A DNA stretch of 57,484 nt from Candidatus Pacearchaeota archaeon (lineage in GTDB: Archaea; Nanobdellota; Nanobdellia; Pacearchaeales; GW2011-AR1), in the NCBI GenBank assembly GCA_023139205.1, contig JAGLOA010000004.1, forward strand, positions 1-57,484. The letters run 5' to 3'. Every line of letters starts with the position of its first letter. Position 1 is the first letter of the stretch. A program made the translations under genes and the position numbers. Of the stretch, positions 21,593 through 55,800 are shown piece by piece. A model generated the notes under the pieces. It made no database searches and was not told the origin of the DNA. It was given only the letters and a program-made list of their open reading frames with translations.

Positions 21593-22000
21593 TTACGCAT
21601 AACCAGAAATCCCAGTAAAATTTCCACGCACTTCTAAATTAAATGTAGTCAAAAATTTATTCAATTCATCAAAAGTCTTCTTATCAATTATTTTTTGGGC
21701 ATACAACTCTTCAAAAACCCCTTTTAAAAAAAGTTTAAAGTCTTTATTAAAAAAAGCTACATTCTTTTCTTTAATTACTTCATTAAAAACACCATACAAA
21801 ATTTCTAAATCAGAATCAAATAAAATCGGATACCTCAACAATAATTTATTGAATTTTGCATCTACTTTTTCAAGTTTTCTTTTAGATATAAAATCTTCTT
21901 TATCCTCTAATAAAGAGGATTCTAATTCTCTTTTTTCAAAATAAAAACTAATAAAATCTCTCATAAATTTTTTATCTTTTTTACTAATCTTTTTTTCCAT
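21593..22000 (-). CDS. hypothetical protein, paralog of 22050-22443
   Basis: Shares FNKDFKLFLKGVFEELYAQKIIDKK..F.ELN.FLTTF.LE with the neighbouring ORF. Confidence 0.7.
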   Translation of the reverse strand: MEKKISKKDKKFMRDFISFYFEKRELESSLLEDKEDFISKRKLEKVDAKFNKLLLRYPILFDSDLEILYGVFNEVIKEKNVAFFNKDFKLFLKGVFEELYAQKIIDKKTFDELNKFLTTFNLEVRGNFTGISGYA

Positions 22001-22476
22001 TTTATCTCACAAACCCAACTTTCTTTAATAATTTCATCCTAAAAGATAATTAAAAGCCCAGACCAGCTCCAGCAGTTTCTCCAGGACCCATTTTACGAGA
22101 CTCTAAATGAAATGTAGTCAAAAATCTATTCAATTCATTAAAAATTTTCTTATCGATTATTTTTTTGGCATACAACTCTTCAAAAACCCATTTTAAAAAG
22201 AACTTAAAAGATTCATTAAAAAAATAACCTTCCCTTTCCTTATCTTTAGCGACCTTATTAAAAACTTTATATAAGAGATTTAAATCCTTAAATAAAAAAC
22301 CATAATTAGGTAACATGCTATTTAATTTTTTATTTGCTTCTTCCAAACTCTTCTTATCTTTGTTAAATTCTGAATCAATACCCTCAAGGTAAGTATTAAT
22401 AAATTCTTCAATAAATTTCCTCTCTTTTTTGTTTTTTTTCCATTTTATCTCACAAACCCAACTTTCTTTAATAATT
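21991..22476. repeat. perfect 43-bp direct repeat of the apgM 3' end, 443 bp apart
   Basis: TTTTTTCCATTTTATCTCACAAACCCAACTTTCTTTAATAATT at 21991-22033 and 22434-22476. Confidence 0.9.
22050..22443 (-). pseudogene. paralog of 21593-22000 with its ATG out of frame through an A8 run
   Basis: ATG at 22443 followed by GA8C; removing one A gives MEKNKKERKFIEEFINTYL..., aligning with MEKKISKKDKKFMRDFISFYF of the paralog. Confidence 0.65.
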
Positions 22477-34624: not shown

Positions 34625-35962
34625 ATGGAAAAAGAGGTAAATTCGCTAGAAAGAGAAATAAAATCTGTAGCCAAAAAATTTCTTGAAAAATCCAAGGACA
34701 AAAAAATTCAGGTTATAAGCCACTTTGATACAGACGGCATTACTTCTGCAGCAATAATGATTCAAACCCTCAAAAAATTAGATAAAACATTTACTGTAAA
34801 AATAGTGAAAAGCCTCGAAGAAGAATTAATAAAAAAACTACCAAAAGACAAATTAACTTTATTTTTAGATTTAGCTTCAGGAAGTTTAAACCATATTTCT
34901 GATGCAAAATTAGAAGATGTTTTTATAATAGATCATCACGAAATTATCCAGGAAATTCCCCCAGAAATAAATATTATAAATCCTGAATTAAAAGATAAAC
35001 AAAAAATAAGCGGTTCAAGTTTAACCTATTTATTTTGCAAAGAACTAAATCCAAAAAATCAAGAATCTGCAAAATTAGCAATATTGGGGATGATTGGAGA
35101 TTGTATGGAAAAAGAAATAGATAAACTAAATCATGATATCTTAAATGACGGAGAAGTAAAAAGAAAAAGAGGACTTTTAATTTATCCGTCGACAAGACCC
35201 CTAAACAGAACTTTAGAATATTGTTCTAAACCATATATCCCAGGAGTTACCGGAGACACAAAAGGAGCTTTAGAATTATTAAGAGAAATTGGACTAAACC
35301 CTAAAGAAGGCAAATACAAAAGTCTCATAGAACTGGATGAAAAAGAAATGTCAAAGTTAGTTACTGCAATAATATTAAGAAATCCAAAAGTAAAAAATAA
35401 AGAAATAATAGGAGATATTTTTTTAATAAAATTGTTCAATAAACTCGAAGATGCAAGAGAATTAAGTGCGATGATTAATGCTTGTTCCAGACTAGGAGAA
35501 AGTGGATTGGCAATCCAGCTTTGCATGGAAATTTCAAAAGCCAAGAAAAAAGCAAAATCAATTTATGTCAAATACAAACAATTAATTGTATCAGGATTAA
35601 AATTTGCTTCAGAAACAGAAAAAATACAGGGAGAAGGATTTACAATAATAAACGCTAAAGACAAAATAAAAGACACAGTAATAGGAACAATCGCAAGTAT
35701 TTTATCTTATTCTTCAATTTACAAAGAAGGGACAATTATTATCGCCATGGCATATTACAGCAATAAAATAAAAATCTCTGCAAGAAATGTTGGAAGAACC
35801 GGAAGAAATGTCAGAGAAATTTTAAACAAAGTTGTGAATGAAATAGGAGGAGAAGTTGGAGGTCATGAATTTGCAGCAGGAGGCATGATTTCTCAGGAAA
35901 AAGAACAGGAATTTATTAATCTTCTAAAAAAGAATCTTGAAATAGAATTAATTAAAGTTTAA
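34625..35962 (+). CDS. DHH family phosphoesterase (RecJ-like)
   Basis: SHFDTDGITS, LDLASG, IIDHH, GMIGD, SARN, GGHEFAAG; start placed at MEKEV. Confidence 0.9.
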   Translation: MEKEVNSLEREIKSVAKKFLEKSKDKKIQVISHFDTDGITSAAIMIQTLKKLDKTFTVKIVKSLEEELIKKLPKDKLTLFLDLASGSLNHISDAKLEDVFIIDHHEIIQEIPPEINIINPELKDKQKISGSSLTYLFCKELNPKNQESAKLAILGMIGDCMEKEIDKLNHDILNDGEVKRKRGLLIYPSTRPLNRTLEYCSKPYIPGVTGDTKGALELLREIGLNPKEGKYKSLIELDEKEMSKLVTAIILRNPKVKNKEIIGDIFLIKLFNKLEDARELSAMINACSRLGESGLAIQLCMEISKAKKKAKSIYVKYKQLIVSGLKFASETEKIQGEGFTIINAKDKIKDTVIGTIASILSYSSIYKEGTIIIAMAYYSNKIKISARNVGRTGRNVREILNKVVNEIGGEVGGHEFAAGGMISQEKEQEFINLLKKNLEIELIKV

Positions 35963-36552
35963 CTGTATTCATTCTACAAGGGTAAAACTTATAAAAGTTT
36001 CTTATCTCTCAGAGGGATATGGGAATAGTAAAATTATTGACTGGAAAAACATTAAAAAGACATTTTACAGAAGATCCAGGAAATATTAAAGAATTTTTTG
36101 AAATGGTAAAAGAAAAGGGAGAAAAAGATGTAAATGCGAATATAATTGAATATCCAAACCAAACATGGGATATGTTTGATTATAAGATGTGTCCAAGCCA
36201 TCAGAATTGCATAAGGACAAAATATCAATCTTCAACAATCGAATTTATCAAACATGAAAACTACAGCAATCTTGTAGAACCTGTTGAAAATTATAATGGA
36301 ACTAAATATAATATAAAAAGAGGCGATGTTATTAAACATTTTACAATTGAGGAAAAGGATTATTACTCAAAAAAATTTCCAGAACTAAAAATAACACTAC
36401 AAAAAGAGAAGGAAATCCGAGACTCAATTAAAGAACTTACTGAATATTATGAAACTCCCCCAATAAAATTTAAAGGGGTAGAGGATTTCTTTAATTAATT
36501 ATTTATTGATCTTCTAAAAAAGAATCTAGAAATAGAATTAATCAAGGTTTAA
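35911..36552. mobile_element. single-gene insert flanked by recoded copies of the DHH gene 3' end
   Basis: 52-nt copies at 35911-35962 and 36501-36552, 48/52 identical; FINLLKKNLEIELIKV* vs FIDLLKKNLEIELIKV*. Confidence 0.8.
36019..36498 (+). CDS. hypothetical protein (cargo of the DHH-end insert)
   Basis: 159-aa ORF lying exactly between the two DHH-end copies. Confidence 0.65.
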   Translation: MGIVKLLTGKTLKRHFTEDPGNIKEFFEMVKEKGEKDVNANIIEYPNQTWDMFDYKMCPSHQNCIRTKYQSSTIEFIKHENYSNLVEPVENYNGTKYNIKRGDVIKHFTIEEKDYYSKKFPELKITLQKEKEIRDSIKELTEYYETPPIKFKGVEDFFN

Positions 36553-36592: not shown

Positions 36593-36961
36593 ATGATAAA
36601 TCGTTTAACAATTGATGAATTAGAATTAATCGTAGAGAATGTAGAAAAGTGGAGACTTGGAAAAGATGATTTTTTTCTTGTTGGTTCATTAGAAAATGTA
36701 AAGATAAAAGCAAAACCAAATACAAATTTTACTCCTTCTTATATAAGGATAGAAGCAATATCTACAAAATGGCCTTATGGAAACTTGGCGAGTTATAGTT
36801 CACGATTTGATGATAGAACCCACCAAAAAACAAATGATGAAATAAGAATTGATAGAATTTACTCGAAAATTGAAAAAGCTTACGAAGAACAAAAGAAATT
36901 GGCTATAGAAAACTCTATCTCTAAAACAAGAGATTTAGTGAGAAAACTTCAAGAGAATTAA
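36593..36961 (+). CDS. hypothetical protein
   Basis: 122-aa ORF, no recognised motif. Confidence 0.55.
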   Translation: MINRLTIDELELIVENVEKWRLGKDDFFLVGSLENVKIKAKPNTNFTPSYIRIEAISTKWPYGNLASYSSRFDDRTHQKTNDEIRIDRIYSKIEKAYEEQKKLAIENSISKTRDLVRKLQEN

Positions 36962-37018
36962 TTCTTTTATTAAAGAAGTAATCAATAAATTTAAAACCCC
37001 AAATTATCTCTTCTTTTC

Positions 37019-37726
37019 ATGACAAATTTAGAAGTAGGAAACATTGTTTTATGCACTGTAGATAGAGTAGTTGGAACAATTGTATTTGTAAAAATAGAAG
37101 GAAATGGTGAAGGAAGCATAATTATGAGCGAGGTTGCTCCTGGAAGAATTAGAAATTTAAGAGATTATATTGTTCCAAAGAAAAAAATAGTTTGTAAAAT
37201 TCTAAGAATTTTAGGAGACAGAATAGATTTATCATTAAGAAGAGTTACACTAAAAGAACAAAAAGAGCTAAAAGAACAATATAAACAAGAAAAAGGATAT
37301 GCAAGTATTTTAAAAAGGGTTTTAGAAGATAAAGCAGAAAAAACAATTGAAGAAATAAAAAGCCAAGAGAGATTATACGATTTTATAGAAGAAGCAAAAG
37401 AAAATCCTACAAAATTAGAAAAAATTTTAGGGAAAGAAGATTCTGATAAAGTATTAGAAATTTTAAAAAACCAAAAACAAAAAAAAGTAATTCTAAAAAA
37501 AGAAATATCTCTAACAACAACCAAACCAAATGGATTAAAATTAATAAAAGATCTTTTAAAAGATATAAAAAATATTGAAATAAAATATATTTCTGCAGGA
37601 AAATATTCCTTTAAAAAAGAAGCTTCTGATTTAAAAAAAGCAGACAATGAATTAAAAGAGATTTTCAAAGAAATAGAAAAACAATCAAAAAAACAAGGTG
37701 TTAATTTTAGTGTGATTGAAAAATGA
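37019..37726 (+). CDS. eif2a: translation initiation factor 2 alpha subunit
   Basis: S1 domain with SEVAPGRIRNLRDYIVPKKKIVCKILRI...IDLSLRRV; YISAGKY; followed by nop10. Confidence 0.88.
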   Translation: MTNLEVGNIVLCTVDRVVGTIVFVKIEGNGEGSIIMSEVAPGRIRNLRDYIVPKKKIVCKILRILGDRIDLSLRRVTLKEQKELKEQYKQEKGYASILKRVLEDKAEKTIEEIKSQERLYDFIEEAKENPTKLEKILGKEDSDKVLEILKNQKQKKVILKKEISLTTTKPNGLKLIKDLLKDIKNIEIKYISAGKYSFKKEASDLKKADNELKEIFKEIEKQSKKQGVNFSVIEK

Positions 37727-39090: not shown

Positions 39091-40497
39091 TTACTTTTTT
39101 ATTTTCTTAAACAAAAACCATCCTCCAACAATCAAAATCACAATTCCAAGGATAATCCATAACCAAATGAGACTACTTTTTTCTTCGTCAAACTTTCCAA
39201 TATCCTCCTCTTCTTCAACTTCTCCAGTTGTTGCTGAACTTTCTTCCTTATCAGATATCTCTTCATGAATCTTTTGTATAGTTACATTTGCCTTATTACT
39301 TTCAATTGAATTCAAAAGAACATAAACATCATAAAACCCATCATTTGTAACATCTACCTTTGAATCTTCCCCAATACTTAAGATTACTTGAATTGGGTTA
39401 CTTGAAATATTTATCGTTGCTGTTGTTTCTGTCAATTTTATGATTCCAACATGATGATAAGCACTTTCAACCTTAATCTTTACTTGATTATTCATAGCAA
39501 GCTCCTTTGTATAACCTTCTTCAAATTGCTCATCATTTATAACATAAGTTTTTGTCCAATAAGATTTTGTGGAAGATTCTGTTGTACTACTCTTTATATT
39601 CCCCACAGTATAAGAAATTGAAGAACTCCCTGAATTGCCTGCATTATCTGTAACAGTACATGTTGCTGTATAACTACCTGTATCAGATGTTGAAGGACTT
39701 GCAGTATAAGAAGTATTACTAACTCCAGAACCTACATCTGTACCAGAACATGAACATGTAATTGTTTCTGTAGCATAAACAGAAGTAGGAGAACAACTAA
39801 AAGCGACTATTGGTACTGTTGTATCCACCCAAACAACATAATATGAAAGATTAACCCCTACACTATTAACAGTATCATTTGCCCAAACATCAATTGAGTG
39901 ATTCCCATCAGCCAATCCAGTAAGATTTAATTGAGTTGTGTTACACCACCCATTAGAAACCATGACCGTCTCATTTGTTCCATTAACATCAAATATACAA
40001 CCACTATTTTCCACTCCAGAAAGTGCATCACCAACAGAAATATTTACTGTTAAAAGTTCTGTATTTTTCTTGTAGGTTATATTATTATATCCAGAATTTG
40101 TCCAGTTTACTAATGGAGCAGTTGAATCAACATACATAGAAACATTTGTAGTAGAATTTATTGCTATTGCAGTCCCATTTAGAGCTTCAATTGTAAAGGT
40201 ATAATTTGCCTCAGTAGTATTAGACCAAGAATAACCAAAATTACTATTATTCTTTTCTGTTCCACTTACATAATTATCATTCATCCAGATGTAAATTGTA
40301 TAATTTGCTTCAACATCTCCTCCACCTGGGGTCCAGTTAACTGTAAAAACCCCTTCATCATAAAGAGATGTTACATTTTGTTCTATTATTAAATCAGTAG
40401 GTGCTGCAGCAGCAGCCAAAACAAAATAAATTGAAAGGATTACTCCTAGTACAATTATCCCAACAAGAAATAGTCTTAAAAACCTTTTATTCACCAT
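39091..40497 (-). CDS. secreted, C-terminally anchored surface protein with Ig/FN3-like repeats
   Basis: Signal peptide, Asn/Thr-rich beta domains (VDSTAPLV, VDTTVPIV), Ser/Thr linker, C-terminal TM and basic tail. Confidence 0.75.
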   Translation of the reverse strand: MVNKRFLRLFLVGIIVLGVILSIYFVLAAAAAPTDLIIEQNVTSLYDEGVFTVNWTPGGGDVEANYTIYIWMNDNYVSGTEKNNSNFGYSWSNTTEANYTFTIEALNGTAIAINSTTNVSMYVDSTAPLVNWTNSGYNNITYKKNTELLTVNISVGDALSGVENSGCIFDVNGTNETVMVSNGWCNTTQLNLTGLADGNHSIDVWANDTVNSVGVNLSYYVVWVDTTVPIVAFSCSPTSVYATETITCSCSGTDVGSGVSNTSYTASPSTSDTGSYTATCTVTDNAGNSGSSSISYTVGNIKSSTTESSTKSYWTKTYVINDEQFEEGYTKELAMNNQVKIKVESAYHHVGIIKLTETTATINISSNPIQVILSIGEDSKVDVTNDGFYDVYVLLNSIESNKANVTIQKIHEEISDKEESSATTGEVEEEEDIGKFDEEKSSLIWLWIILGIVILIVGGWFLFKKIKK

Positions 40498-40505
40498 TTT
40501 TCACT

Positions 40506-43500
40506 TTATTTCCTCCTCCTAACAAAAATTCCTAAAAAAATAATTCCAGCTAAAACGAAAATTCCAAGAATAATCCATAACCAAATTAAATTGCTTTTTT
40601 CTTGCATTTCTTCACCTTTAGCAATCTTTTCTTTTTCCTCTTCTTCTAAAATTGTTTCTGGTGTTACTTCTTCATAAAGAGACTTAATTGTAAATTCTGC
40701 TTTATTTGATGTAGAATTTATACTATCAAGGGTAACACTTAAATCATAATAATTATCTTCTGAAACTTCAAATCTTCTTGTATCTCCTATACTCAATGTA
40801 GCTATTTGAGGTGTTGAAGAAATATTAATCTTAGCAGTAGTGTTTGTCAATTCAATTAATTGAACATGATGGGTCTTATTTTCTACTTTTAATCTAAACC
40901 GACTATTTACAGGTATTGCTTTTGTATAACCTTCTTCAAATTGCTCATCACTTATAGTAAATGTGGGTATAGAAGATCCACCTCCGGAAGATCCACCTCC
41001 GGAAGAACTATCTGCAGGAGGGGTCGTAGCAGGCACACTTATTGTATAACTAGAAAAGCCTAATGAAGTCGGAATCTTACAATTAGTCTGAGAAGAATCT
41101 CCAGAACAACTTGAATAAGATTTAACATCTGAAGAATTACTTCCATCATCCGCTGCCCATGTTAAAGTATTGCTTGCACTATATGCCACAGGAAAAGACA
41201 ATTCAACAGAATCTCCAGAGCCACCCATTCCCAAATCACTAAGAAGAAAATTCCAGGCCTTTGTTGAAGAATTCATTCCTAAAATTTCATTGTCTGTATC
41301 AGCAATAAAAGCTCCGTCTAAACTTAAAGTCTTTGGTTTATACAAATCAGCCCCGACAAACTTAAAATGCATATCTTCATAACTAACAGTAATATTCATA
41401 TTTTTAGTTTGGGAAGTATTTGTCTTTATACCAATATCATAAGTATTAGTACTTGAATTATCATAATAAGTAAAATTCCCCGCATAAAGAGTACTGCCAT
41501 CTCCTGCAGTAATATTAACAACATAACCATCTGGTAAATCAATTCTAAATATAAAATTCTTATTTTGTTTTCTTGTTGTAAAATTCAAACACTTTGAAAT
41601 TCCGCAGTTTCCAGAAGGGTCGCAAACTTTCACCTTATAATAATAAGCAGTATTATTAATTAAATCAAATCCTAGGGTATCATTATTTAAATTAGCCCGG
41701 TGAAATGGTTTATAATCATCAAAACTAAAACCAATGTCCCCAAGATCATCTATATTTGGGGTTACATTTAAAGCACAAGTTGAACTTGTGTTATAGAACA
41801 TCAGAGAACCATTTGCAGGCTCATCTGTGTCATAAATTATAATTGCAGAGTCAGCCATCTTCTCAACCTTGCTAAACATTACAACAGGCGCTTTATTGTC
41901 ATTTGTATCAATTATAAAATTAAATGCTGTTCCGCTACCAACACATGCAGGACTAAATATACATTTAGGGTCAGCACAATCAGCATATCCATCACTATCA
42001 TCATCTACTCCGTTTTTGCAATCTTCAAACATTTGTGCCCCAAACTTCTGAAAACTCTTACACTTCGGATCTTTAATCATTGGATTAGAACAATCTACAA
42101 AATCAAAATCAATTGTTCCTGGAGTATAATAAGCAGGTCCTACTTCATCTGCACCATCTCCCTCCCCTGTTCCATTAAAACTCACTGCAAAAACCCTCAT
42201 AGGTTCTGTTATATCAAACAAATTAAAATTTTCCAAGGTTTCTTTTTCTATTGAAACAAATGGAGAACCCATATTAGAAGTAAAACAGGTAAACTTTTTA
42301 TCATCTGTAATAAACACATTTGTTGGAGCCCATTGCCATTCATTATTTGAATTTTGAATACACACATATAATTTTTTTGTTGTTTCTATACTTCCAGTAT
42401 CAGTATTATTTCGCACAAGATAATCAATATAAAATTCATAATTAGGATAACCTAAAGAAACTTCATTTGAATCAGTAGCATTACAATGACTCAAAGAACT
42501 TGAATCTCCGTCAGTATCTAAATACCACCTAAATCTTGTTGCATTTATCCCAATTCCAGAAGAAATAGTTTCTTGTCCGGGAATAGAAATAGGATAACCA
42601 TTACAAATAGCAGCATCTGTAATATTATAAACGCCGGTTCCAAATCCATAAGCATTATCTGTAACCCTCATTCCAAAACCCATAATATCTACATAACCAG
42701 AAATACCTGCTTCAGCACCTCCAAGATTATTATCACTATCCATACCAAGCATAACTGGCTCCCCTTGCATTTCACCAACTAAATCATAATTTCCTTTAGG
42801 ATCGCACCAACCATCTGGTTCATCTGCACTAAGATTATTATCCACACTAGTATCATTAAACCAAGTACAAGTATAATTATTCAACAAACAAGCAGTCATA
42901 TTTCCATCATATTGCATACAGCCAGTTACACCTCCACCACCACCTCCCATAATGTCAAAAAATTCAGGCATACACATATCAGTAGTATTTCTCCATTCAC
43001 AAATTCCACTTCTATTATCACTTGTACAAGCAGATTCATTTACATCCTCGCTAAAACAAACAGGTTCACAAATTTGTTCGGACGCAAACCATGTGCAATT
43101 CCCATTTGCCTGACAGCCACTTACATTTCCATCCATTGAAATACAATCTGCAAAAAGATAATAATCACAAAAACCACTAATAGAACCACCAGGATTAGTC
43201 CAATTAACCCAAGAACAATTTCCAGTACAACTTTCCTCAGAGCCAATATTCCAGCAAGAAGCACTATCTATTTTTGAGATATTAACATCACAAAAACCAG
43301 AACCAAAATCCACACTTGACTCATTTGTGCATCCTGGTTGAGCACCACACCCAGTTAAATTTCCATCCCACTGCCAGCAAATTTCTCCAGGCATACCACA
43401 ATGCCCGTTTGGTTCCCAGGTATTATTTATCCAAGTGCAATTAGTATTTCCAAAAGCAATTGCTGCTTCACAAGCTGTTTGATCATCATCATACATAGCA

Positions 43501-45725
43501 CAATCACCAAAACTTGAACCTCCGCAAGCCATATCAAAACTACAATCAGGATCTGCACAATCAATCATCCCATCCTTATCATTATCTGTTCCGTCAAAAC
43601 AAATCTCTCCGTCAAAATTATTCGGCTTGCACAAAATATTAGTTGCATCCCACATACAATCAGTAGAACTTGCAAAACAGGATTGAGAATCATAACAGCT
43701 AAAACAATCTGTATCACAGACTTTTTTGTTTTTAGAAACACAAGAACCAGTTGCTAAAACACTTCCAGTCATATTTGTATCATTTACCCACTTACAACTT
43801 GCAGAACTTGAAAGACAAGAACTATATGCATCCAACATCATTCCACAATCATTACAATTTATCTGGCAGTCTCCTGCACCATAACTCATTTCTTCCGGAT
43901 AATCACACCAACCCAATTTATTAGGAGAATTTGTATCAGTTGTCCATCTACAATATCCTAATGCAGAACCAACACAAGCAGCTTCTGCCAAAGTCCCATT
44001 ATTTTCCCAGGCTCCACCACTTGAATTAAATTCACAAGCCCAACAATCAGAATCACAACTACCTTTATTTGCTGCTGCTGTTCCAGTAGATAAATCAAAT
44101 AATGCTCCTTTCTCACACCATTGATCTTGTTTTAAAATTCCATTATCCAAATAATATTCTTTCATCCATGTTCCTCCAGCAGCAATACAAGAATACTCTG
44201 AATTAATTATTTCATATTCCTGTTCATTACTCCCTGTTCCAGAACCAGAACCAAAAACAGCATTTGAATTAAATGTGCAATTTTTAATAATCGTAGAAGA
44301 ATTATCCCATTTACAAGGCATCATATATTCTTCCCACAAACTCTTACATAAAGTATAATTATTTTTTGCATCAGGATGTTCACAAAACATAACAGGCGGA
44401 ACTGCTTTTTTTTCAGAACTTGTTCCAGCAGCACAATAACTTCCAGTTACATTAACAGAACTATTCCAGACACAATTTGGCAAAGGTCCGTAATTGCAAG
44501 CACTTTTTATTTGAATATCTGAACAAACTAAATTAGCAGTATTATTTGCATTAGTATAAATTTGAGAATCCCAAGAATCATGTCCCTCACAATACCCAAT
44601 TTGTTTATTATAACAAATATTATTATCTGAAGAATTATCTACCCCATAATTTCCTGTCCCTGTAGCACAATAAGCACATCCAGTTATATTCCCACAAACT
44701 AAAGGTTGATTATCTGCAAACCAGCAATGAGCTTCTCCACCAAACATAAATGCTCCTCCACCATCAGTAATAGTTGGCATTTCACAAGCTGTTCCATTCC
44801 ACCAACCACCAGTTCCCATGCAAGAATCAGTATCATCAAAAAACATAAATCCTCCTCCACCCATATCTTGGCAAGTACCACTTTCATTAGTACAAGGCAT
44901 CATCATTTGTGTTTTTAACATATTACAAAGAGTATGATTATCACCTGCTTCATTACACATTTTTGAATAACAACAACCAGCAGGATCAGGACACCAAAGA
45001 TCATCTGTTTTATTTACATAAGTACAAAGTCCTGCAAAAACTCCCTCAGACATACATTGAGATTCATTACCATCATAAGTCCAACAACCTTTTTGTTCAC
45101 AACAACCAATATCATTTATAGTTGCAAAAGAATTCTCAATTAAAGCATCACCCAAGGTTTTTATCCAGCACCATGGATTTTGATTTTGATCATTTGCTTT
45201 CCATTCACAAGTAGCAGTATTCGCACTACTTGCACATTGTCCTCTATCTCCATCATATTGCCAACAACCACTTGCAGCCCCACCAAAATTATCGTCGCCC
45301 ATGGCATTCCAATCTCCATAACAGGTTCCATTCATTTCAAAAGAAGTTCCATTTTGATAATAATTTGTAGCAGGAAAACCATTCCAAGTACAATTTAAAG
45401 TTCCATCATTTGTTTCACAAATATTTTGGCTTGTTGCATCCCACTGCCAACACATTTTTTCTAAACAACAATAACTAGAATAATCAGAACTACACATACA
45501 ATCAAAAGAAACATTATCACTATTATATCCATATATAGTTTCCACACCAGCAACATTATCAGAAGTTACAACACAACCTGCAGCAACACAAGAATCTGGA
45601 GTCCCTCCATTTTGTGCTCCATATTGATAACAATCAATCCATGCAGAAACAAAATTTAAACAAATTAAAATAGAAAATACTAAGAATACTAATAACAAAA
45701 ACAATTTAGATTTTTTCCTCACCAT
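40506..45725 (-). CDS. giant Cys-rich surface protein (1739 aa)
   Basis: Signal peptide, repeated CWQ(W/Y)DG units, CxDGxDNDxDGxxDCADPDC motifs, C-terminal TM; anchor domain shared with 39091-40497. Confidence 0.75.
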   Translation of the reverse strand: MVRKKSKLFLLLVFLVFSILICLNFVSAWIDCYQYGAQNGGTPDSCVAAGCVVTSDNVAGVETIYGYNSDNVSFDCMCSSDYSSYCCLEKMCWQWDATSQNICETNDGTLNCTWNGFPATNYYQNGTSFEMNGTCYGDWNAMGDDNFGGAASGCWQYDGDRGQCASSANTATCEWKANDQNQNPWCWIKTLGDALIENSFATINDIGCCEQKGCWTYDGNESQCMSEGVFAGLCTYVNKTDDLWCPDPAGCCYSKMCNEAGDNHTLCNMLKTQMMMPCTNESGTCQDMGGGGFMFFDDTDSCMGTGGWWNGTACEMPTITDGGGAFMFGGEAHCWFADNQPLVCGNITGCAYCATGTGNYGVDNSSDNNICYNKQIGYCEGHDSWDSQIYTNANNTANLVCSDIQIKSACNYGPLPNCVWNSSVNVTGSYCAAGTSSEKKAVPPVMFCEHPDAKNNYTLCKSLWEEYMMPCKWDNSSTIIKNCTFNSNAVFGSGSGTGSNEQEYEIINSEYSCIAAGGTWMKEYYLDNGILKQDQWCEKGALFDLSTGTAAANKGSCDSDCWACEFNSSGGAWENNGTLAEAACVGSALGYCRWTTDTNSPNKLGWCDYPEEMSYGAGDCQINCNDCGMMLDAYSSCLSSSASCKWVNDTNMTGSVLATGSCVSKNKKVCDTDCFSCYDSQSCFASSTDCMWDATNILCKPNNFDGEICFDGTDNDKDGMIDCADPDCSFDMACGGSSFGDCAMYDDDQTACEAAIAFGNTNCTWINNTWEPNGHCGMPGEICWQWDGNLTGCGAQPGCTNESSVDFGSGFCDVNISKIDSASCWNIGSEESCTGNCSWVNWTNPGGSISGFCDYYLFADCISMDGNVSGCQANGNCTWFASEQICEPVCFSEDVNESACTSDNRSGICEWRNTTDMCMPEFFDIMGGGGGGVTGCMQYDGNMTACLLNNYTCTWFNDTSVDNNLSADEPDGWCDPKGNYDLVGEMQGEPVMLGMDSDNNLGGAEAGISGYVDIMGFGMRVTDNAYGFGTGVYNITDAAICNGYPISIPGQETISSGIGINATRFRWYLDTDGDSSSLSHCNATDSNEVSLGYPNYEFYIDYLVRNNTDTGSIETTKKLYVCIQNSNNEWQWAPTNVFITDDKKFTCFTSNMGSPFVSIEKETLENFNLFDITEPMRVFAVSFNGTGEGDGADEVGPAYYTPGTIDFDFVDCSNPMIKDPKCKSFQKFGAQMFEDCKNGVDDDSDGYADCADPKCIFSPACVGSGTAFNFIIDTNDNKAPVVMFSKVEKMADSAIIIYDTDEPANGSLMFYNTSSTCALNVTPNIDDLGDIGFSFDDYKPFHRANLNNDTLGFDLINNTAYYYKVKVCDPSGNCGISKCLNFTTRKQNKNFIFRIDLPDGYVVNITAGDGSTLYAGNFTYYDNSSTNTYDIGIKTNTSQTKNMNITVSYEDMHFKFVGADLYKPKTLSLDGAFIADTDNEILGMNSSTKAWNFLLSDLGMGGSGDSVELSFPVAYSASNTLTWAADDGSNSSDVKSYSSCSGDSSQTNCKIPTSLGFSSYTISVPATTPPADSSSGGGSSGGGSSIPTFTISDEQFEEGYTKAIPVNSRFRLKVENKTHHVQLIELTNTTAKINISSTPQIATLSIGDTRRFEVSEDNYYDLSVTLDSINSTSNKAEFTIKSLYEEVTPETILEEEEKEKIAKGEEMQEKSNLIWLWIILGIFVLAGIIFLGIFVRRRK

Positions 45726-46271: not shown

Positions 46272-49200
46272 TTAATATTGTAAAATAGCTTCTCCAGTAA
46301 TTTTTTCTTTTGACTCCCACACTTCTTTTTCTTCTTTTTTATCTTCGTCCTCAAAATCTTCTCTGTCTTCTCCTTCCATTCCTTTTTTCATCATCATAGA
46401 AAAAAATGTTTTAAATAAAGTTTTAACATCTTTTTTAGCTTCTTCGGGATAAACTTTTGCAGAATTAATTATAGCATTAACTTTAAAATACATTTTTATT
46501 CCATTAGTTATTTCTTTTATTTTTTGAAGAGGTCTGGCTCTTCTATCCCAAGGAGGAGATTCTATCTCTGCCCCCCTCATTTCTTTTTCCATAACATAAA
46601 TCATATCATAAATTTTTTCAAAATCAAGTTCTATTCTAACATCTTCTTCTGGAACTTCCTCAACCAACATTGGCTCCATTTTTAAGATATCATCTTCATT
46701 AACCTGCACATACAAATTAAAAACAACCTCATCAGTTTCATAATCTTTAAACTGAACAACTGCATTAACATTTCCCCCATACTTCTCTGAAATTTTTCTT
46801 ATCTTTTTCATAAACCCTTTATCTTGTTTTATCATCTCTCTTTCTTCTTCAGTAGGACCCTCTTGATTTCCTCTTTCCATTTTTTCTTCTGGAGATCCTG
46901 GAAACTCATGATTTTTCATTGATTGTTTCATTTCATAAATAATAAATTTTTTAGGGGGGAAAATCCAGACTTTCATATAAGGTGAAATAATTTTATGTTC
47001 TCCTTCTAATCCGGGAATTTTTACTGTTTTTACTTCTTCCCAATATTCCAAACTTCCAAACTCTGTTTCATAATTCATACTTATTAAATTATATTCGGGG
47101 AGCTCATTAATTCCGAGGCATTTCATTCTTTCTGCAGTCTGTCTTTGATTATCAACATTATTCCAATATAATTCATAGATTCCACTTTGTGCTTGCTCCC
47201 AATCTTCTGCAGAATTAGCTAAATATTTTTCAAAAAACCATGCAACAAATTCCTGATTAAATCCTTTTTCAAATTCTTTTCTTTGCTTTCTCAAATTTTC
47301 TAAATCATACTTACACCATTCAGCTTCCCCTCCTGAATAATATTTTGTTTTTAATGGTTGAATTTTATCAAAAGGATTTCCCCATCCATTAAACCAAATA
47401 AATCCCTCTGTTTTTCCCTGACTAGTTCTGCAAGATCCCCCTGCCATAAAAACTCCTTTCTCCTCTTTATGTTCTTCTTGCTCTTGCTCAAATTCCTTCC
47501 ACCAATCTCCTCCTTTCATACATTTCTCAACACAATCCTCTTCAGCTTTACAAGAACCTTCACACTTTCTTTGCTCTTCATCCACATTACAGTCCAGCTC
47601 TTCACCACAAGATTCACGAATACATTTTTCTATACAAGGTCTGCTACAATCTTTAGCACATCTTTTCTTATCCTCTTCTCTTCTTTCTTTCTCATCTCTT
47701 TCTTGTTCTTTGTCTTCCCTTTCTCTTCTCTCTCCTTCTTTATCCTCCCAATTCTCATCAGATTTTTCTTCATCAAAAAATTCCTCATGTTTTTCTTCTT
47801 CATCAAAATTCTCTTCAATTACATCGCCTTCTGTTTCATCAAGAAAATTTTCTTCAACATCATCTGCACCATCAGATTCATCCCCTTGTGAAGAACCATC
47901 ATCACTTTCTCCTTCATCAAATGATTCTGATGCACCTTCTCCTGCAGTATCTCCTCCATTATCACTTCCTTCATCAACTGTGGCTCCTGTAATCCTGCCT
48001 AAAATTGCCCTAAAAAAATTAAAAATAATTTCTCCTGTTACTGGTGCTGATTCTTCTATATTTTCTTCTTGTTCCTCTGGCTCACTTTCTTCTACTTCTT
48101 CGACCTCTTCTTGTTCTTCTGCAGGTTCCTCGAATCCTGATTCCTCAATTTCTTCTGCTGGTTCTTCATCCACTCCATCTTCTATAATTTCTCCATCTTC
48201 AGATTCCTCACTTATCTCGTCTCCAAGAACTATTTCTTCAATTTCAGAATCTTCTGCCTCAATCACCTGAGGAATTGTAACACACTTCCCATTACTGCAA
48301 ACATCATTTTCTCCCCCACAATCTCCTCTTACTGAACATTCTTCCCCAACAATTTCATTTTCTACAATTTCAACTTCCACAACTCCTTCAATAACTTCAT
48401 CAGACACTTCACAATCAACTCCTGTTTCTCTCCATAAACCATCAATACATTTTTCAGCAACTATTTGCTCTCCTGAATCGCAATTTTTTACTTTTTCATC
48501 CCCATCCACGCAATCTGACTCTCTGCATTCAGATAACTCAATTAACATGCATTTACCCTCGATACAATCTGCTTTTCCGCATAAAGGCTGAATACAATCT
48601 TCATCAAACTCACAATCATCCTTCTGCACAATACAAACAGGCTCCATAGGACAACCATTTTCATCTTTACCGCTAAATATAACTTTTCCAGAACAATTTA
48701 TTGCAGAATATTGAGGGCAAAGAGAACAATCCTCGGCACAAGTTTCTATTGTCTCATTTTCCTCACAAATATGATTCCCACAAATAGTTTTTATTTTTTT
48801 CACAAGCTCTTCTTTAACTTTACATTCCCCTGCAATGCAATACAATTCCAAAATCCCTTCTCTAGTTTGATTTCCTTCTTCTAAAACAACAGTTGTTTTT
48901 CCGCAAAACTTTCCCCCGCATTGCTTATCATCACAATCCACTTTCTCATCCTCATTATCATCTATATTGTTATCACAAATCTCTTCTCCAAACTCCTTAA
49001 ACTCCTCAACAAGCCTTTTTTCAAATTCTACCTGGGTAAAATAAGATTCTCTTTTTTCATAGCCAGAAAAAAGATTAAGATAAAATTGTTTTCTCTTTTC
49101 ATAATTTTCTTTTCTCAATTTCTTTTCCATTTTCTTTTTTGCCTGCTCCTCTTTTATCCATCCATAATTATCATAATCATCCATAAGCCATTCTATCTTA

Positions 49201-50480
49201 TTTTCATTAATCATCATATTTCCAACAAGAGTATTCTCAACTACAACATTTGTTTGAGTGTCTTCTTCGCCAATTGTGTTTTCAACTATAACATCATCCT
49301 GACTATTTCCTTCAACAACTTTATCCTCAACTACTCTCTCTTGATTTCTACTTCCTTCAATTATTTTTCCAGCATTATTATCTCCTCCAAACATATTATC
49401 AATTTGCTCCCAAACATCATTTGATTTTTGATTCCATGCATCATTTATCACCCAGATTTCTTGTTTTATCCCACTAATTTTTTTCCATTGTCTTTCATCT
49501 ATTGCCTGCTTATATTCATCTAATAATTCCGTAATCCTCCTCTCAAACCCTCTAAAATCCATATTTTTAAATTGCTCAGGAGATATCATCTTCAAATCCC
49601 CTTCTTCAATTTTAATCCCAAAACCTCTTCCTTCTAACCATAAATCAAGATTAATCCAGTTCCATTCACAATCATCACACATTTCCAATCTTGCAATTAC
49701 CTCAAACTTATCTCCTTCATAAAAATCAATTTCCTGGACAAGAAGTTTTTGAGTCTGCCTTTGATTTTCAGAACCAAAAATAGCTTTCATTAAATCTTCA
49801 CATTTTCCCTGATTCTGCCTAAAATAATTTTCAAATATTCTTTCAGCATTCACACTCTCTTTCGCTAATTTATCCCCATTTCCACGCGACGAATCAGAAT
49901 TAAAAATCTGGGCAAGAGTTTGAATATTCTTTATTTTTCCCTGAATATCTAATTGCTCTTTTGGTTTTTTAAATTCAGTTTCAAAATCCAGTCTATAAAT
50001 TATATCTTTTTCAGTAAATTCTTTTTCTTTAAAATTTTGTTCCTCTTCTTTAAATTTTTCTTTATCTTCAAATTCCTTTTTCATAAAAACAGAAGGCCAC
50101 GCATTAAGTCTTATTTGAATCTTTTTTCCGTCGAAAATTATTTTTTTCCAAACAGGCACATAACTACTAAGTCTTGTCTCATGCTCTAAACCATCGACCC
50201 AAACCCATTTTGTTTGTTCATTTGACTCTCCTAAAATTGATTTAATTTGATCCTGCTTTAAAATTCCCCCATGCTCTCTCTCAGTAGCACCTAAAATTTC
50301 ATTTAAACTTTGCCTGACAGCACTTGTATAAACCAAAAGCTGAACATAATTTATATTTCCTATCTCATATTCTTCAGCATAATAAGTAATTTTTTGCATT
50401 TCATCGTCAACAAAATCAGCAGAAATAATTGGAAAAAGAAATAAAATTAACAAAAATAAAAATACAATCACCTTTTTCAT
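46272..50480 (-). CDS. giant exported protein (1402 aa) with Cys-rich and long acidic regions
   Basis: Signal peptide; EICDNNIDDNEDEKVDCDD, ICGNHICEENET...CAEDC; extended E/D-rich segment. Confidence 0.7.
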   Translation of the reverse strand: MKKVIVFLFLLILFLFPIISADFVDDEMQKITYYAEEYEIGNINYVQLLVYTSAVRQSLNEILGATEREHGGILKQDQIKSILGESNEQTKWVWVDGLEHETRLSSYVPVWKKIIFDGKKIQIRLNAWPSVFMKKEFEDKEKFKEEEQNFKEKEFTEKDIIYRLDFETEFKKPKEQLDIQGKIKNIQTLAQIFNSDSSRGNGDKLAKESVNAERIFENYFRQNQGKCEDLMKAIFGSENQRQTQKLLVQEIDFYEGDKFEVIARLEMCDDCEWNWINLDLWLEGRGFGIKIEEGDLKMISPEQFKNMDFRGFERRITELLDEYKQAIDERQWKKISGIKQEIWVINDAWNQKSNDVWEQIDNMFGGDNNAGKIIEGSRNQERVVEDKVVEGNSQDDVIVENTIGEEDTQTNVVVENTLVGNMMINENKIEWLMDDYDNYGWIKEEQAKKKMEKKLRKENYEKRKQFYLNLFSGYEKRESYFTQVEFEKRLVEEFKEFGEEICDNNIDDNEDEKVDCDDKQCGGKFCGKTTVVLEEGNQTREGILELYCIAGECKVKEELVKKIKTICGNHICEENETIETCAEDCSLCPQYSAINCSGKVIFSGKDENGCPMEPVCIVQKDDCEFDEDCIQPLCGKADCIEGKCMLIELSECRESDCVDGDEKVKNCDSGEQIVAEKCIDGLWRETGVDCEVSDEVIEGVVEVEIVENEIVGEECSVRGDCGGENDVCSNGKCVTIPQVIEAEDSEIEEIVLGDEISEESEDGEIIEDGVDEEPAEEIEESGFEEPAEEQEEVEEVEESEPEEQEENIEESAPVTGEIIFNFFRAILGRITGATVDEGSDNGGDTAGEGASESFDEGESDDGSSQGDESDGADDVEENFLDETEGDVIEENFDEEEKHEEFFDEEKSDENWEDKEGERREREDKEQERDEKERREEDKKRCAKDCSRPCIEKCIRESCGEELDCNVDEEQRKCEGSCKAEEDCVEKCMKGGDWWKEFEQEQEEHKEEKGVFMAGGSCRTSQGKTEGFIWFNGWGNPFDKIQPLKTKYYSGGEAEWCKYDLENLRKQRKEFEKGFNQEFVAWFFEKYLANSAEDWEQAQSGIYELYWNNVDNQRQTAERMKCLGINELPEYNLISMNYETEFGSLEYWEEVKTVKIPGLEGEHKIISPYMKVWIFPPKKFIIYEMKQSMKNHEFPGSPEEKMERGNQEGPTEEEREMIKQDKGFMKKIRKISEKYGGNVNAVVQFKDYETDEVVFNLYVQVNEDDILKMEPMLVEEVPEEDVRIELDFEKIYDMIYVMEKEMRGAEIESPPWDRRARPLQKIKEITNGIKMYFKVNAIINSAKVYPEEAKKDVKTLFKTFFSMMMKKGMEGEDREDFEDEDKKEEKEVWESKEKITGEAILQY

Positions 50481-52811: not shown

Positions 52812-55800
52812 CTAAACAACATCAAACTCCCAACTAGCACTCTTCTCCAAAAATTCTACATAAACTCTATACTCTCCTGCCTCATTCACAGAAACATTCA
52901 TATTATTAAACCCAGCAAATATTTGATTTCCCAAATTATCTTCTCCAATATCTAATTTTATAAGACCCTTTACAGGAACAGTTATTTCCTGATTAACTGG
53001 AGTTAAATAATCCTGCCATTCTTCTGCTTTTTTCTGAATTTTTATAATTAAATTTCCTAATAAATCTTCACCACCAGTATTAACTATTTTTGATTGAAGT
53101 CTTGGTTGAGGGGCTCCTAAACCACAATCATAACAACCTGTACGTTGTAAATCATGTTGAAACATTGACCAATCACTGCTAGTTTCTTCTCCTTCAATTT
53201 CCCAAAGATATAAGTCCACTCCCAAATCATCTAAATTCTCATCAGCTGAAGCTGCAAACTCAATTTTACCATCATTATCAATATCTTCTATTTGAAGGAT
53301 GTTAGAATGATAAAACTCAGAAATTGGAAGGGGGAATCCTTCTAAAAGAGACCCATCATTCTTGTATCCCAAAACCCCTAAATGCGAAGAAGTGAAAATC
53401 TCCTTCACCCCATCTCCAGTAATATCTTTTGTTACAGAAGAAAACCCTCCTTTTTGAGACCCACCCCAATTGAAATAATCGCTTCCATCAGAATTAAAGA
53501 TTCTTAAAGATAAAGATAATAAAGATTTTTTCATTGCCAAAATTTTAATTTGCCCATTATCTTCTAAATCAGATAAAGTTATCCTGCCCCCATAATTACC
53601 CTCTTTATACCATTTTAAAAAACCATCATTTTCTAACACAAAAAGACCTCCATAACCCCCAAAAATAATTTCATCCTCATCATCATTATCTATATCTCCC
53701 ACAACAGGGACCCCAAAACAAACCTCATATTCATACTCTCTCGACCACCCAGCTACAGTAGTACCATCATAATTATAAACCTCTACTTTTGTTTTTCCAA
53801 CCTGAGGATCAACAATTACAATTTCATAGTCAAGATCATCATCGAAATTTCCTATAGCAAGAGAAGGAAGAAATGCAGACCCCCCCAACAAAGGGGATAA
53901 AGGAATATTTATTTGTTGCAAATCATCAACTATAACAAAACTTTCTTGACATTGAATAATAATTTCATTTTTTCCATCTCCTTCAAAATCAAAAACAATT
54001 ATTGAATTCTCCATAAAATTGCAATTTTCTATTCTTAATTCATATTTTTTATTTCCTAAAAAATCATATCCATAAATCATTGTTTCATCATCATTTAGAA
54101 CAAATTGAACTAATATTTCATCTTTATTATCTCCATCTATATCTGCTATTGTTATTGGAGAATCACTTAACCACTCCCTACCTTGTATCTCTTCAAATAT
54201 TATGCGAATAGGCCATCCAGAAACTTCTAATCCATTCTTTTTAAAAGCATGAATTTTTCCAAGTTCTTGTTTACCAGTTCTCTCTAAAAAAAGCACTTCT
54301 TTTTCTCCATCATAATCTACATCATAAAATTGAGGTGCTAATTCCCCTGGATTATTTATTTCTCCATCTTCACCCAAGGAAATTGAGTTTAATCTTATTG
54401 GCCAGCCTTCTTCTAATTTAGAACTTAAATAAATATTTTCTATGTATTCTTCAAAATAAGAACCAGAAAATTCAAAAGTTAAAACCAAACTATAAAACCC
54501 ATCTTCTAACAAAGAGGTGTCCCAAATTGCAAAAGAATTGTCAATTATATTTATCCCTATCGGGCCTAAGGAAACTCCATCCTCCCCAAAAATATCAACA
54601 GAATAAAAACCATACTCTAAATTTTTTATTTCTACTTTTATATCAACTAAATCCCCTGCTCTATAAACACCATTATTAAATGGCTCTATAATTTCAAGGT
54701 TATCTACCTTAAAAATCCCAAAATCAATACTTTGTTCCCCTCCAGAATCATAAACAACCAACTTAATCTCATATCTCCCATCAACCAAGTTTAAAGCATC
54801 AAAATCCTTACACAAAATACCCTTTTCAATTATCTGACTTCCACTACAAATTAAATCCCAATTAATAGTTCCTTCTTCTCCATAAAATAATTCATAAGAA
54901 CTAAAACCTTCTCCCTTTGATGTTCCATAAATATCCATTAAAACAGAGGGCTCATAATTAATTGGGGCTAACTCGGCAACAAGCGGTCTTCCAGATTGAA
55001 CAGCTTTCAGAATATCAACTCTTCCCTGTCCTTGTTTAATAATTCTCTCATCAAGATCAACTCCAGTATTTCTCAAAGCCATTTTAATTTCATCAGGACT
55101 CCAATCTGGATTTTTCTGTTTTAACAAAGCAACAGCACCTGCAACATGAGGTGTTGCCATACTTGTTCCTGAAATTGCGATATGCTCATTGTCAAAACAT
55201 TTTCTGTCATCCCAAGCAGAATCATATTGTGCAGCACAAATATCAACTCCAGGAGCAACAACATCTGGTTTGATTATAGCTTTTTCATTTCCTTCATCAT
55301 CTTCCCAAATTACAGGACCTCTGGAACTAAAACTTGCCATATTATCAAAATCATCAGAAGCACCGACAGTAATTGCTTTCCTTGCTGTTCCAGGACTCCC
55401 AATTGTTTGCTCACCAGGTCCAGAATTTCCAGCAGCAACAACAGCAACAACACCTGCACTAACAGCATTATCAATTGCTTGAGATTGAGGATCATCTGGG
55501 TCTCCATAACCTCCTAAACTTAAACTAATAACATCAACACCATCTAAAACTGCTTTTTCAATTCCTAAAATTACCAAAGCAGAAGAACCAGATCCCTGCT
55601 CATCCAAAACCTTATAAGCATAAATTTTTGCATCAGGAGCAACGCCCTTAAGAATTCCATTTCCAGAAGCTATTCCCACACAATGTGTTCCATGACCATG
55701 ATCATCCAAAGGATCATTATCCCAATTAACAAAATCATAACCTCCAACAACTTTGCACCCAACTCCAAAACAACCTCCTAAATCCTCATGAGTATAATCT

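Follow-up and report, generated by a model that had tools for sequence, protein, structure and literature searches.

A displaced copy of the RecJ gene end between two small genes of a Pacearchaeota archaeon, a candidate scar of illegitimate recombination

Introduction

How can the end of a housekeeping gene come to be present twice, each time followed by a different small gene? This question is raised by a locus in a stretch of 57,484 nucleotides (nt), called the window below, which spans positions 1 to 57,484 of the forward strand of contig JAGLOA010000004.1 (NCBI GenBank assembly GCA_023139205.1, Candidatus Pacearchaeota archaeon). There, the gene for an archaeal RecJ/GAN (Cdc45-like) protein is followed by a small open reading frame (ORF) coding for 159 amino acids (aa), named ORF159, a second copy of the RecJ gene end, another small ORF (ORF122) and the eIF2-alpha gene. 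A preliminary description of this DNA had read the arrangement as a single orphan gene captured, much as a gene cassette would be, between two recoded ends of the RecJ-like gene. The results presented here lead us to prefer, with moderate confidence, a different account, in which the second copy is a displaced RecJ/GAN tail, left as a scar when two alleles of a variable slot between RecJ and eIF2-alpha underwent a single illegitimate recombination.

The genomes of DPANN archaea are tiny; orphan genes are numerous in them, and recognisable mobile elements are scarce. The host of the window is a DPANN archaeon of the Pace/Woesearchaeota type. Its DNA is AT-rich (25-38% G+C), and the runs carrying the window sequence are cold-seep metagenomes. 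The comparison set consisted of 80 related loci from GTDB genomes, all with Pace/Woesearchaeota-type names.

Results and discussion

The duplicated gene end

The locus carries a duplicated end of its anchor gene between two different accessory genes, in the order RecJ tail 1, ORF159, RecJ tail 2 and ORF122 (Table 1). The direct repeat of 52 nt is real: its coordinates, its length, the identity of 48/52 and the four differing sites (three silent, one Asn to Asp) given in the preliminary description were all reproduced, as was its correspondence to the last 17 codons of a RecJ-like DHH gene. The copies are spaced by 590 nt, with an interval of 538 nt between them. No third copy is present in the window at up to three mismatches, and none of 100 dinucleotide shuffles of the window yielded a comparable match. 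An identity of 48/52 is also far above the background of related loci, since the best ungapped match between a RecJ tail and its own downstream DNA was 23-34/52 in the 78 loci used for this comparison. Similar gene-end duplications are not found elsewhere in the window, where tandem paralogues or repeated domains account for the other long repeats.

The copies become homologous abruptly, 17 codons ahead of the stop codon, the homology ends exactly at that stop, and the outer flanks are unrelated. The longest exact run common to both copies is 19 nt. They differ at 35918 (A/G, Asn/Asp), 35938 (T/A), 35953 (T/C) and 35956 (A/G), the latter three changes being silent; the Asn/Asp exchange is conservative, and both residues are found at that position in the tails of relatives. 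No indel and no new stop has been gained in copy 2, so that frame and stop are intact. The chance that at least three of four random changes would be silent is 0.03-0.07. The gene ends thus do look recoded, as had been stated, and with only four differing sites they differ as alleles would rather than as a gene and its decaying pseudogene. This synonymous bias, together with the kept frame and stop, points to divergence as working gene ends in two genomes: judging from the sequences, both tails were probably still coding during their divergence, and hence resided in separate genomes. The kept coding sense argues against the copying of one tail followed by decay, while a repeat that ends at the stop codon between unrelated flanks is what would be expected of diverged alleles in which only the coding part is conserved.

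A structure of this kind could also be created during assembly, by a chimeric join of two co-occurring strains. Many related Pacearchaeota are present in the samples, and two Logan assemblies break inside copy 1. We nevertheless regard an artefact as next to impossible. Seven contigs (two ENA and five Logan assemblies), which come from different samples and two assembly pipelines, agree at every base of the locus, and single contigs at 10-17x depth span the whole structure in three runs. In addition, the copies agree over no more than 19 consecutive bases, and the joint proposed below over only 10; both lengths are below any assembler k-mer used, and the 19-nt stretch is too short for a k=31 graph join.

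As a separate observation, the Logan contigs of runs X4 and X6 break and overlap at 35912-35943, and the three other runs assemble through. The breaks point to a co-occurring strain or species with the same ~30-mer and different sequence beside it.

Table 1. Position of the duplicated RecJ gene end and of the genes and motifs around it (window coordinates)
Feature	Coordinates	Strand	Remarks
S15-like ribosomal protein gene, 116 aa	34245..34595	+	NCBIfam S15, E 5e-9, below curated cutoff
Archaeal RecJ/GAN (Cdc45-like) gene, 445 aa	34625..35962	+	Pfam DHH, DHH_CID, DHHA1
Repeat copy 1	35911-35962	+	Functional last 17 codons of RecJ and TAA, ending in FINLLKKNLEIELIKV and stop; peptide conserved among relatives
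TATA-like box TTATAAA	35989..35995	+	30 nt upstream of ORF159 ATG
ORF159, 159 aa	36019..36498	+	Uncharacterised small-protein family; stop ends 2 nt before copy 2
Repeat copy 2	36501-36552	+	Displaced, untranslated RecJ tail, ending in FIDLLKKNLEIELIKV and stop; behind the ORF159 stop and in frame with ORF159
ATTTATTGAT	36501..36510	+	Putative 10-nt microhomology and illegitimate joint, from a single X5 contig
TATA-like box CTTAAAAA	36564..36571	+	29 nt upstream of ORF122 ATG
ORF122	36593..36961	+	True orphan, only in contigs of the window's organism
Possible original ORF159-eIF2-alpha spacer	36954..36987	+	Weak match (27/34 identical) to the X5 ORF159 3' flank
TATA-like box TTTAAAA	36990..36996	+	29 nt upstream of eIF2-alpha ATG
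eIF2-alpha gene	37019..37726	+	Pfam EIF_2_alpha, synteny; conserved gene that borders the variable slot on the right

The slot between RecJ and eIF2-alpha

The RecJ gene was identified by its Pfam domains (E-values of 4e-14 for DHH, 5e-15 for DHH_CID and 1e-12 for DHHA1) and by the NCBIfam model RecJ_archaeal, which it matches with 337 bits, just under the cutoff of 360. More than 2500 homologues were retrieved; the nearest is 81% identical, and closer strains sought through the RecJ protein did not appear above that value. The gene order ParA - S15-like - RecJ - eIF2-alpha - Nop10 - MJ0043-like is kept in relatives, the S15-like gene being the conserved upstream neighbour of RecJ and syntenic in most of them.

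The survey of the slot covered genomes in which RecJ reaches an identity of at least 64% and the contig also includes eIF2-alpha. The site is variable, as the preliminary description had supposed. In 26 related genomes the slot is empty, with a gap of 15-93 nt from RecJ to eIF2-alpha in which the promoter motif CACAACCTTTAAAAC is conserved before eIF2-alpha, overlapping the RecJ stop codon in some genomes. Another 18 genomes carry 150-1560 nt of extra DNA with ORFs on either strand, and these alternative occupants, which include orphans, a HIT-family protein and a DDE transposase, are mutually unrelated except for one pair. Among the seven nearest RecJ relatives (79-81% identity) the slot is empty in all but locus L081, and empty joints were also found in co-occurring species of the same samples. 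The gene for ribosomal protein S27e occupies the slot in a deeper clade, where RecJ is 50-55% identical. With 26 empty and 18 occupied sites, unrelated occupants and S27e in the deeper clade, the slot is a hot spot of gene gain and loss. A duplicated RecJ tail was searched for at the DNA and peptide level and was found in none of about 85 related loci and in none of the 18 other occupied sites.

Several features of individual loci were recorded in the course of this survey. The transposase, a DDE_Tnp_1 protein of 331 aa (L012:1748-2744, minus strand), represents an insertion sequence inserted in the slot, and the HIT-family protein of L006 is encoded on the opposite strand. S27e is present in L045-L078 (for example L045:5513-5689, Pfam E 2e-16); it is gone from the slot in the clade of the window, and no S27e gene is detectable in the 57-kb window. 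In seven loci (L015, L020, L022, L024, L027, L032 and L035) the RecJ stop (...ATTTAA, followed by AAC...) overlaps the TATA-like box of eIF2-alpha, whose ATG lies only 15-24 nt away from RecJ; there, the end of a replication gene would at the same time serve as promoter for the gene of a translation factor. A second variable spot lies between eIF2-alpha and Nop10, with about 470-570 nt in many relatives (for example L004:7111-7603, L008:7050-7517 and L013:4818-5385). These two genes abut or overlap in the window (37723-37726), L005, L007 and L039.

The two accessory genes

The 538-nt insert with its own TATA-like box and an ORF of 159 aa ending 2 nt before copy 2 was confirmed at its coordinates. 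The description of ORF159 as an orphan did not hold. A homologue with 58% identity (P0002) lies directly between RecJ and eIF2-alpha in L081, and another with 60% identity lies directly upstream of eIF2-alpha in L089, where the end of the contig cuts off the upstream side. An exhaustive HMMER search added seven remote homologues of 110-148 aa. The family has in common an N-terminal motif, GKTLxRxxxGxPGNLxEFFEM..ExGE, and a C-terminal one, YSKLFPExKIxL. Neither L081 nor L089 has a tail copy, an ORF122 or a flanking repeat. Given that homologues occupy the slot of L081 and the position upstream of eIF2-alpha in L089 without any repeats, ORF159 is probably not the captured cargo that the preliminary description had taken it to be. 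A neighbour-joining tree of RecJ places the window and L081 as successive basal branches, the rest of the clade being empty, so that one ancestral presence and one loss would explain both. The flanking genes of L089 group elsewhere, and its placement needs further losses or transfer.

The function of ORF159 was searched for with no match in Pfam, NCBIfam, PHROG or PDB sequence profiles. AlphaFold2 gave a poor model with 2 sequences (predicted local distance difference test, pLDDT, 51) and a usable one with 9 (pLDDT 77, predicted template modelling score, pTM, 0.71); a Foldseek comparison of the ORF159 model with the PDB returned no match, with a best E of 0.2. Neither the sequence nor the predicted fold suggests a likeness to recombinases or nucleases. 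No confirmed match to the family was obtained in GTDB genomes, possibly because the wider-alignment scan was confirmed against ORF159 itself, and none was confirmed in viral contigs. The two remote members that were looked up adjoin radical-SAM or Fe-S genes and not RecJ or eIF2-alpha. The family as a whole covers 110-162 aa, the remote members being P0124-P0130. ORF159 was also considered as a diverged duplicate of the RecJ 3' end, within a tandem duplication of 590 nt, and this was discarded for lack of BLASTP similarity. In L081, a LAGLIDADG_3 homing-endonuclease-like gene (L081:603-1520, minus strand) is found beside ParA, two genes upstream of RecJ, and has no counterpart in the window.

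ORF122 behaves differently: among 5.8 billion proteins it matched only itself, and it gave no family match. The lineage-specific novelty of the locus is therefore copy 2 with ORF122, not ORF159. Kinship of ORF122 to other slot occupants, such as the 121-aa ORF of L003, was explored and rejected (local alignment z-scores of 2.2 or less).

The position of copy 2, immediately behind ORF159 and before ORF122, could indicate that it has been kept for a function, either by adding the 17 C-terminal residues of RecJ to ORF159 when its stop codon is read through or by forming part of the promoter or terminator of the gene that follows. Copy 2 comes after ORF159 in the same frame, with a single TAA and one Leu codon in between, its coding sense is fully preserved, and the overlap of the RecJ stop with the eIF2-alpha TATA box in several relatives indicates that the tail can carry promoter function. 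Such a role is hardly to be expected here, however: a common frame is a coincidence of 1 in 3, the homologues of ORF159 have no such extension, and a TATA-like box belonging to ORF122 itself lies at the standard -29 position, downstream of copy 2.

The promoter of ORF159 had been taken as a sign of cassette-like packaging. TATA-like boxes lie 28-30 nt before the ATG in 18 of the 43 ORFs of the window, ORF122 and eIF2-alpha included, so that an own promoter is simply the generic gene layout of this genome. The native promoter context of copy 2 was dropped as evidence on its origin for the same reason.

A cassette or miniature integrative element would imply that a circle of about 590 bp, consisting of promoter, ORF159 and an att site resembling the RecJ 3' end, became part of the RecJ tail by site-specific integration; the joining would be done by a recombinase provided in trans, and it would regenerate the gene end and leave attL and attR. 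The tight packing of a single-gene unit between direct repeats, the identical core of 19 nt that could serve as crossover region, the empty and alternative states of the slot among species and the integrons with cassettes reported in archaeal metagenome-assembled genomes (PMC9668308) would fit such an element. Most of what this interpretation predicts was nonetheless not encountered, and we consider it improbable. The repeats are absent from the other occupied sites and from the loci with ORF159 homologues. No integrase is encoded in the insert or among the neighbouring ORFs scanned, a scan that covered part of the window ORFs and in which ten further ORFs proved to be housekeeping genes, and ORF159, by sequence or predicted fold, does not resemble a recombinase or nuclease. 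An attC-like single-strand hairpin was not found at either boundary on either strand (z-scores of -0.6 to -1.5 versus shuffles). The 590-bp circles that the preliminary description had proposed looking for were sought in the assembled contigs of five runs, which showed neither a circle junction (back-joint) nor a 590-nt deletion (skip), bearing in mind that contigs drop rare variants. The promoter is of the generic type, and no member of the ORF159 family was confirmed in viral contigs.

A more far-reaching idea, to which we give very little credit, is that the RecJ tail is the recombination site of an undescribed archaeal system that would move single promoter-plus-gene modules into the slot with a recombinase encoded elsewhere, and/or that copy 2 is under selection through occasional read-through of the ORF159 TAA. 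If such a system existed, the unrelated slot occupants would be products of it whose repeats have eroded.

Origin of the second tail

The most direct way to obtain two gene ends is an event in situ, in which the ORF159 segment, or else the tail with ORF122, was inserted with a target duplication of 52 nt by a staggered break, template switching or slippage; later drift in the dead copy would account for the four differences. This would be the simplest source of a short duplicated gene end; with only four differences the silent bias could be due to chance, and no donor lineage was found. We still judge it unlikely. A dead copy should gain changes at random positions as well as indels, and here neither reading frame nor stop is damaged and every change is either silent or conservative. 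No known mechanism of transposition would account for a target duplication of 52 nt, which is, to our knowledge, far longer than known ones, and the locus shows neither a transposase nor terminal inverted repeats; the only inverted repeat nearby has arms of 27 nt with 74% complementarity. Moreover, the position of ORF159 relative to RecJ is common to L081, which argues that ORF159 was probably already present.

Information on the other end of the event comes from X5, a run of a different study, which contains a strain about 98-99% identical to the window in parts of RecJ and ORF159. Of the words sampled from the window, X5 contains 30% of those of the ORF159 module and none of those of ORF122. 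One X5 contig matches 36406-36510 exactly, that is, the end of ORF159, its TAA, TT and ATTTATTGAT, and beyond this point has AAAGGTAATTAATAATCATAAGCTTTAAAA in place of the RecJ tail. This continuation aligns at 27/34 positions with the window spacer between ORF122 and eIF2-alpha, a score reached by 5 of 500 shuffles. Provided that the X5 contig is sound, ATTTATTGAT would be native to the 3' flank of ORF159; as it also forms the first 10 nt of the RecJ tail, it would constitute a microhomology where the joint was made. For the X5 contigs' loose flanks, no match was obtained in the window or in any fetched locus.

According to the recombination account that we favour, two alleles of the slot would have been involved. 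The first may have had the order RecJ-ORF159-eIF2-alpha, as in L081 and, for the ORF159-eIF2-alpha side, in L089, and the second would have been RecJ-ORF122-eIF2-alpha. DNA of a closely related strain would have recombined by ordinary homology on one side, in RecJ or eIF2-alpha, and would have been joined on the other side at the microhomology, which forms the beginning of the RecJ tail and is also present just after the stop of ORF159. The product would stack both occupants in the order RecJ(tail 1)-ORF159-(tail 2)-ORF122-eIF2-alpha. Tail 1 would keep RecJ intact and tail 2 would stay untranslated; each small gene would keep its own TATA box and could be transcribed separately, and no further movement would be expected at the locus. 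Because ORF159 directly follows RecJ in L081 too, tail 2 with ORF122 is favoured as the added piece, although the exchange could also have taken place in the opposite direction.

Several points weigh against this account. A parent with the order RecJ-ORF122-eIF2-alpha was not found in public data, where the nearest RecJ is only 81% identical and ORF122 has no homologue. The silent-site bias is only marginally significant, resting on four differences. The microhomology joint is taken from one short, low-depth contig from another study, the left flank of which is unlike ORF159 and has stops in frame, so that it could be rearranged or chimeric. Finally, the common frame of ORF159 and copy 2 is left as a coincidence.

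Comparison with known systems

The process closest to the one proposed is homology-facilitated illegitimate recombination (HFIR), which has been described in Acinetobacter, Streptococcus pneumoniae, Pseudomonas stutzeri and conjugation in E. coli (PMC3240628; references in PMC5361080). In HFIR, a one-sided homologous anchor and a joint at a microhomology of about 3-10 nt insert foreign DNA beside a conserved gene; short stretches of recipient sequence can be duplicated or deleted in the process, and a dedicated recombinase is not required. It has been experimentally shown only in bacteria, whereas here it would be deduced from one scar in an uncultured DPANN archaeon, with a microhomology derived from a single contig.

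The outcome resembles the arrays created by displacement of 3' ends ('C-terminal' displacement) in Rhs, CDI (contact-dependent growth inhibition) and type VI secretion system (T6SS) effector-immunity loci (PMC5361080 and references therein). In these arrays, an incoming gene end with its downstream gene pushes the old end and the gene behind it further down, and a 3' piece of the conserved upstream gene stays behind as an orphan before the older accessory gene. Those loci encode toxins that are polymorphic, with tips that vary, together with immunity genes, and are subject to strong diversifying selection, in contrast to the housekeeping replication nuclease with a conserved tail found here, where the displaced piece has only 52 nt.

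Integrative elements that target the 3' ends of tRNA or protein genes, bringing along a copy that replaces the end, are similar in having direct repeats of the target 3' end (attL/attR), copies that differ and an intact gene restored at one side. They encode an integrase and are kilobases long, while the segment studied here has 538 nt and a single small protein without recombinase features, and sister insertions with repeats are missing among the approximately 85 related loci. Integron cassettes, including those of archaeal metagenome-assembled genomes (PMC9668308), are also single-gene units with a defined insertion point and occupants that differ from genome to genome. Here, in contrast, no IntI was found among the neighbours and ORFs scanned, there is neither an attI/attC hairpin nor a cassette array, and the repeats are a coding gene end and not attC. 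Integron cassettes are usually promoterless and expressed from Pc, unlike ORF159, which has a putative promoter element, the TATA-like box at -30. Taken together, the lack of a duplicated tail in relatives, of a recombinase and of an attC-like hairpin, along with the generic promoter, does not sustain the cassette-like packaging initially proposed.

Other features of the window

Two adjacent small genes on the minus strand (21593-22346), coding for 135 and 98 aa, are tandem paralogues with a 141-nt stretch that is 84% identical (21633-21773 and 22102-22242) and covers their C-terminal halves. The segments 39134-39541 and 40552-40956, about 1416 nt apart, contain a repeat of 52 nt with 85% identity and another of 138 nt with 71% identity; these belong to a paralogous segment that the 468-aa ORF at 39091-40497 has in common with the end of the neighbouring 1739-aa ORF. 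Four giant ORFs are located on the minus strand, at 8746-16719, 40506-45725, 46272-50480 and 52812-57410 (2657, 1739, 1402 and 1532 aa, respectively), some of them with internal repeats (for example at 56720-57042), and they may encode large surface proteins.

Concluding remarks

As a recombination scar, the second RecJ tail is a modest finding, which would represent a known kind of process in a new instance, within an archaeal group for which this process had not been documented before. It reveals no new mobile element. The ORF159 family, with its conserved motif, a confidently predicted fold and no match in the PDB, is a small side product that could be of interest for structural and functional follow-up, and the slot between RecJ and eIF2-alpha could serve for studies of how genes are gained and lost across Pacearchaeota. 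For the biology of DPANN archaea, the locus would provide a concrete and datable case in which an orphan gene was added beside core replication and translation genes without mobile-element machinery.

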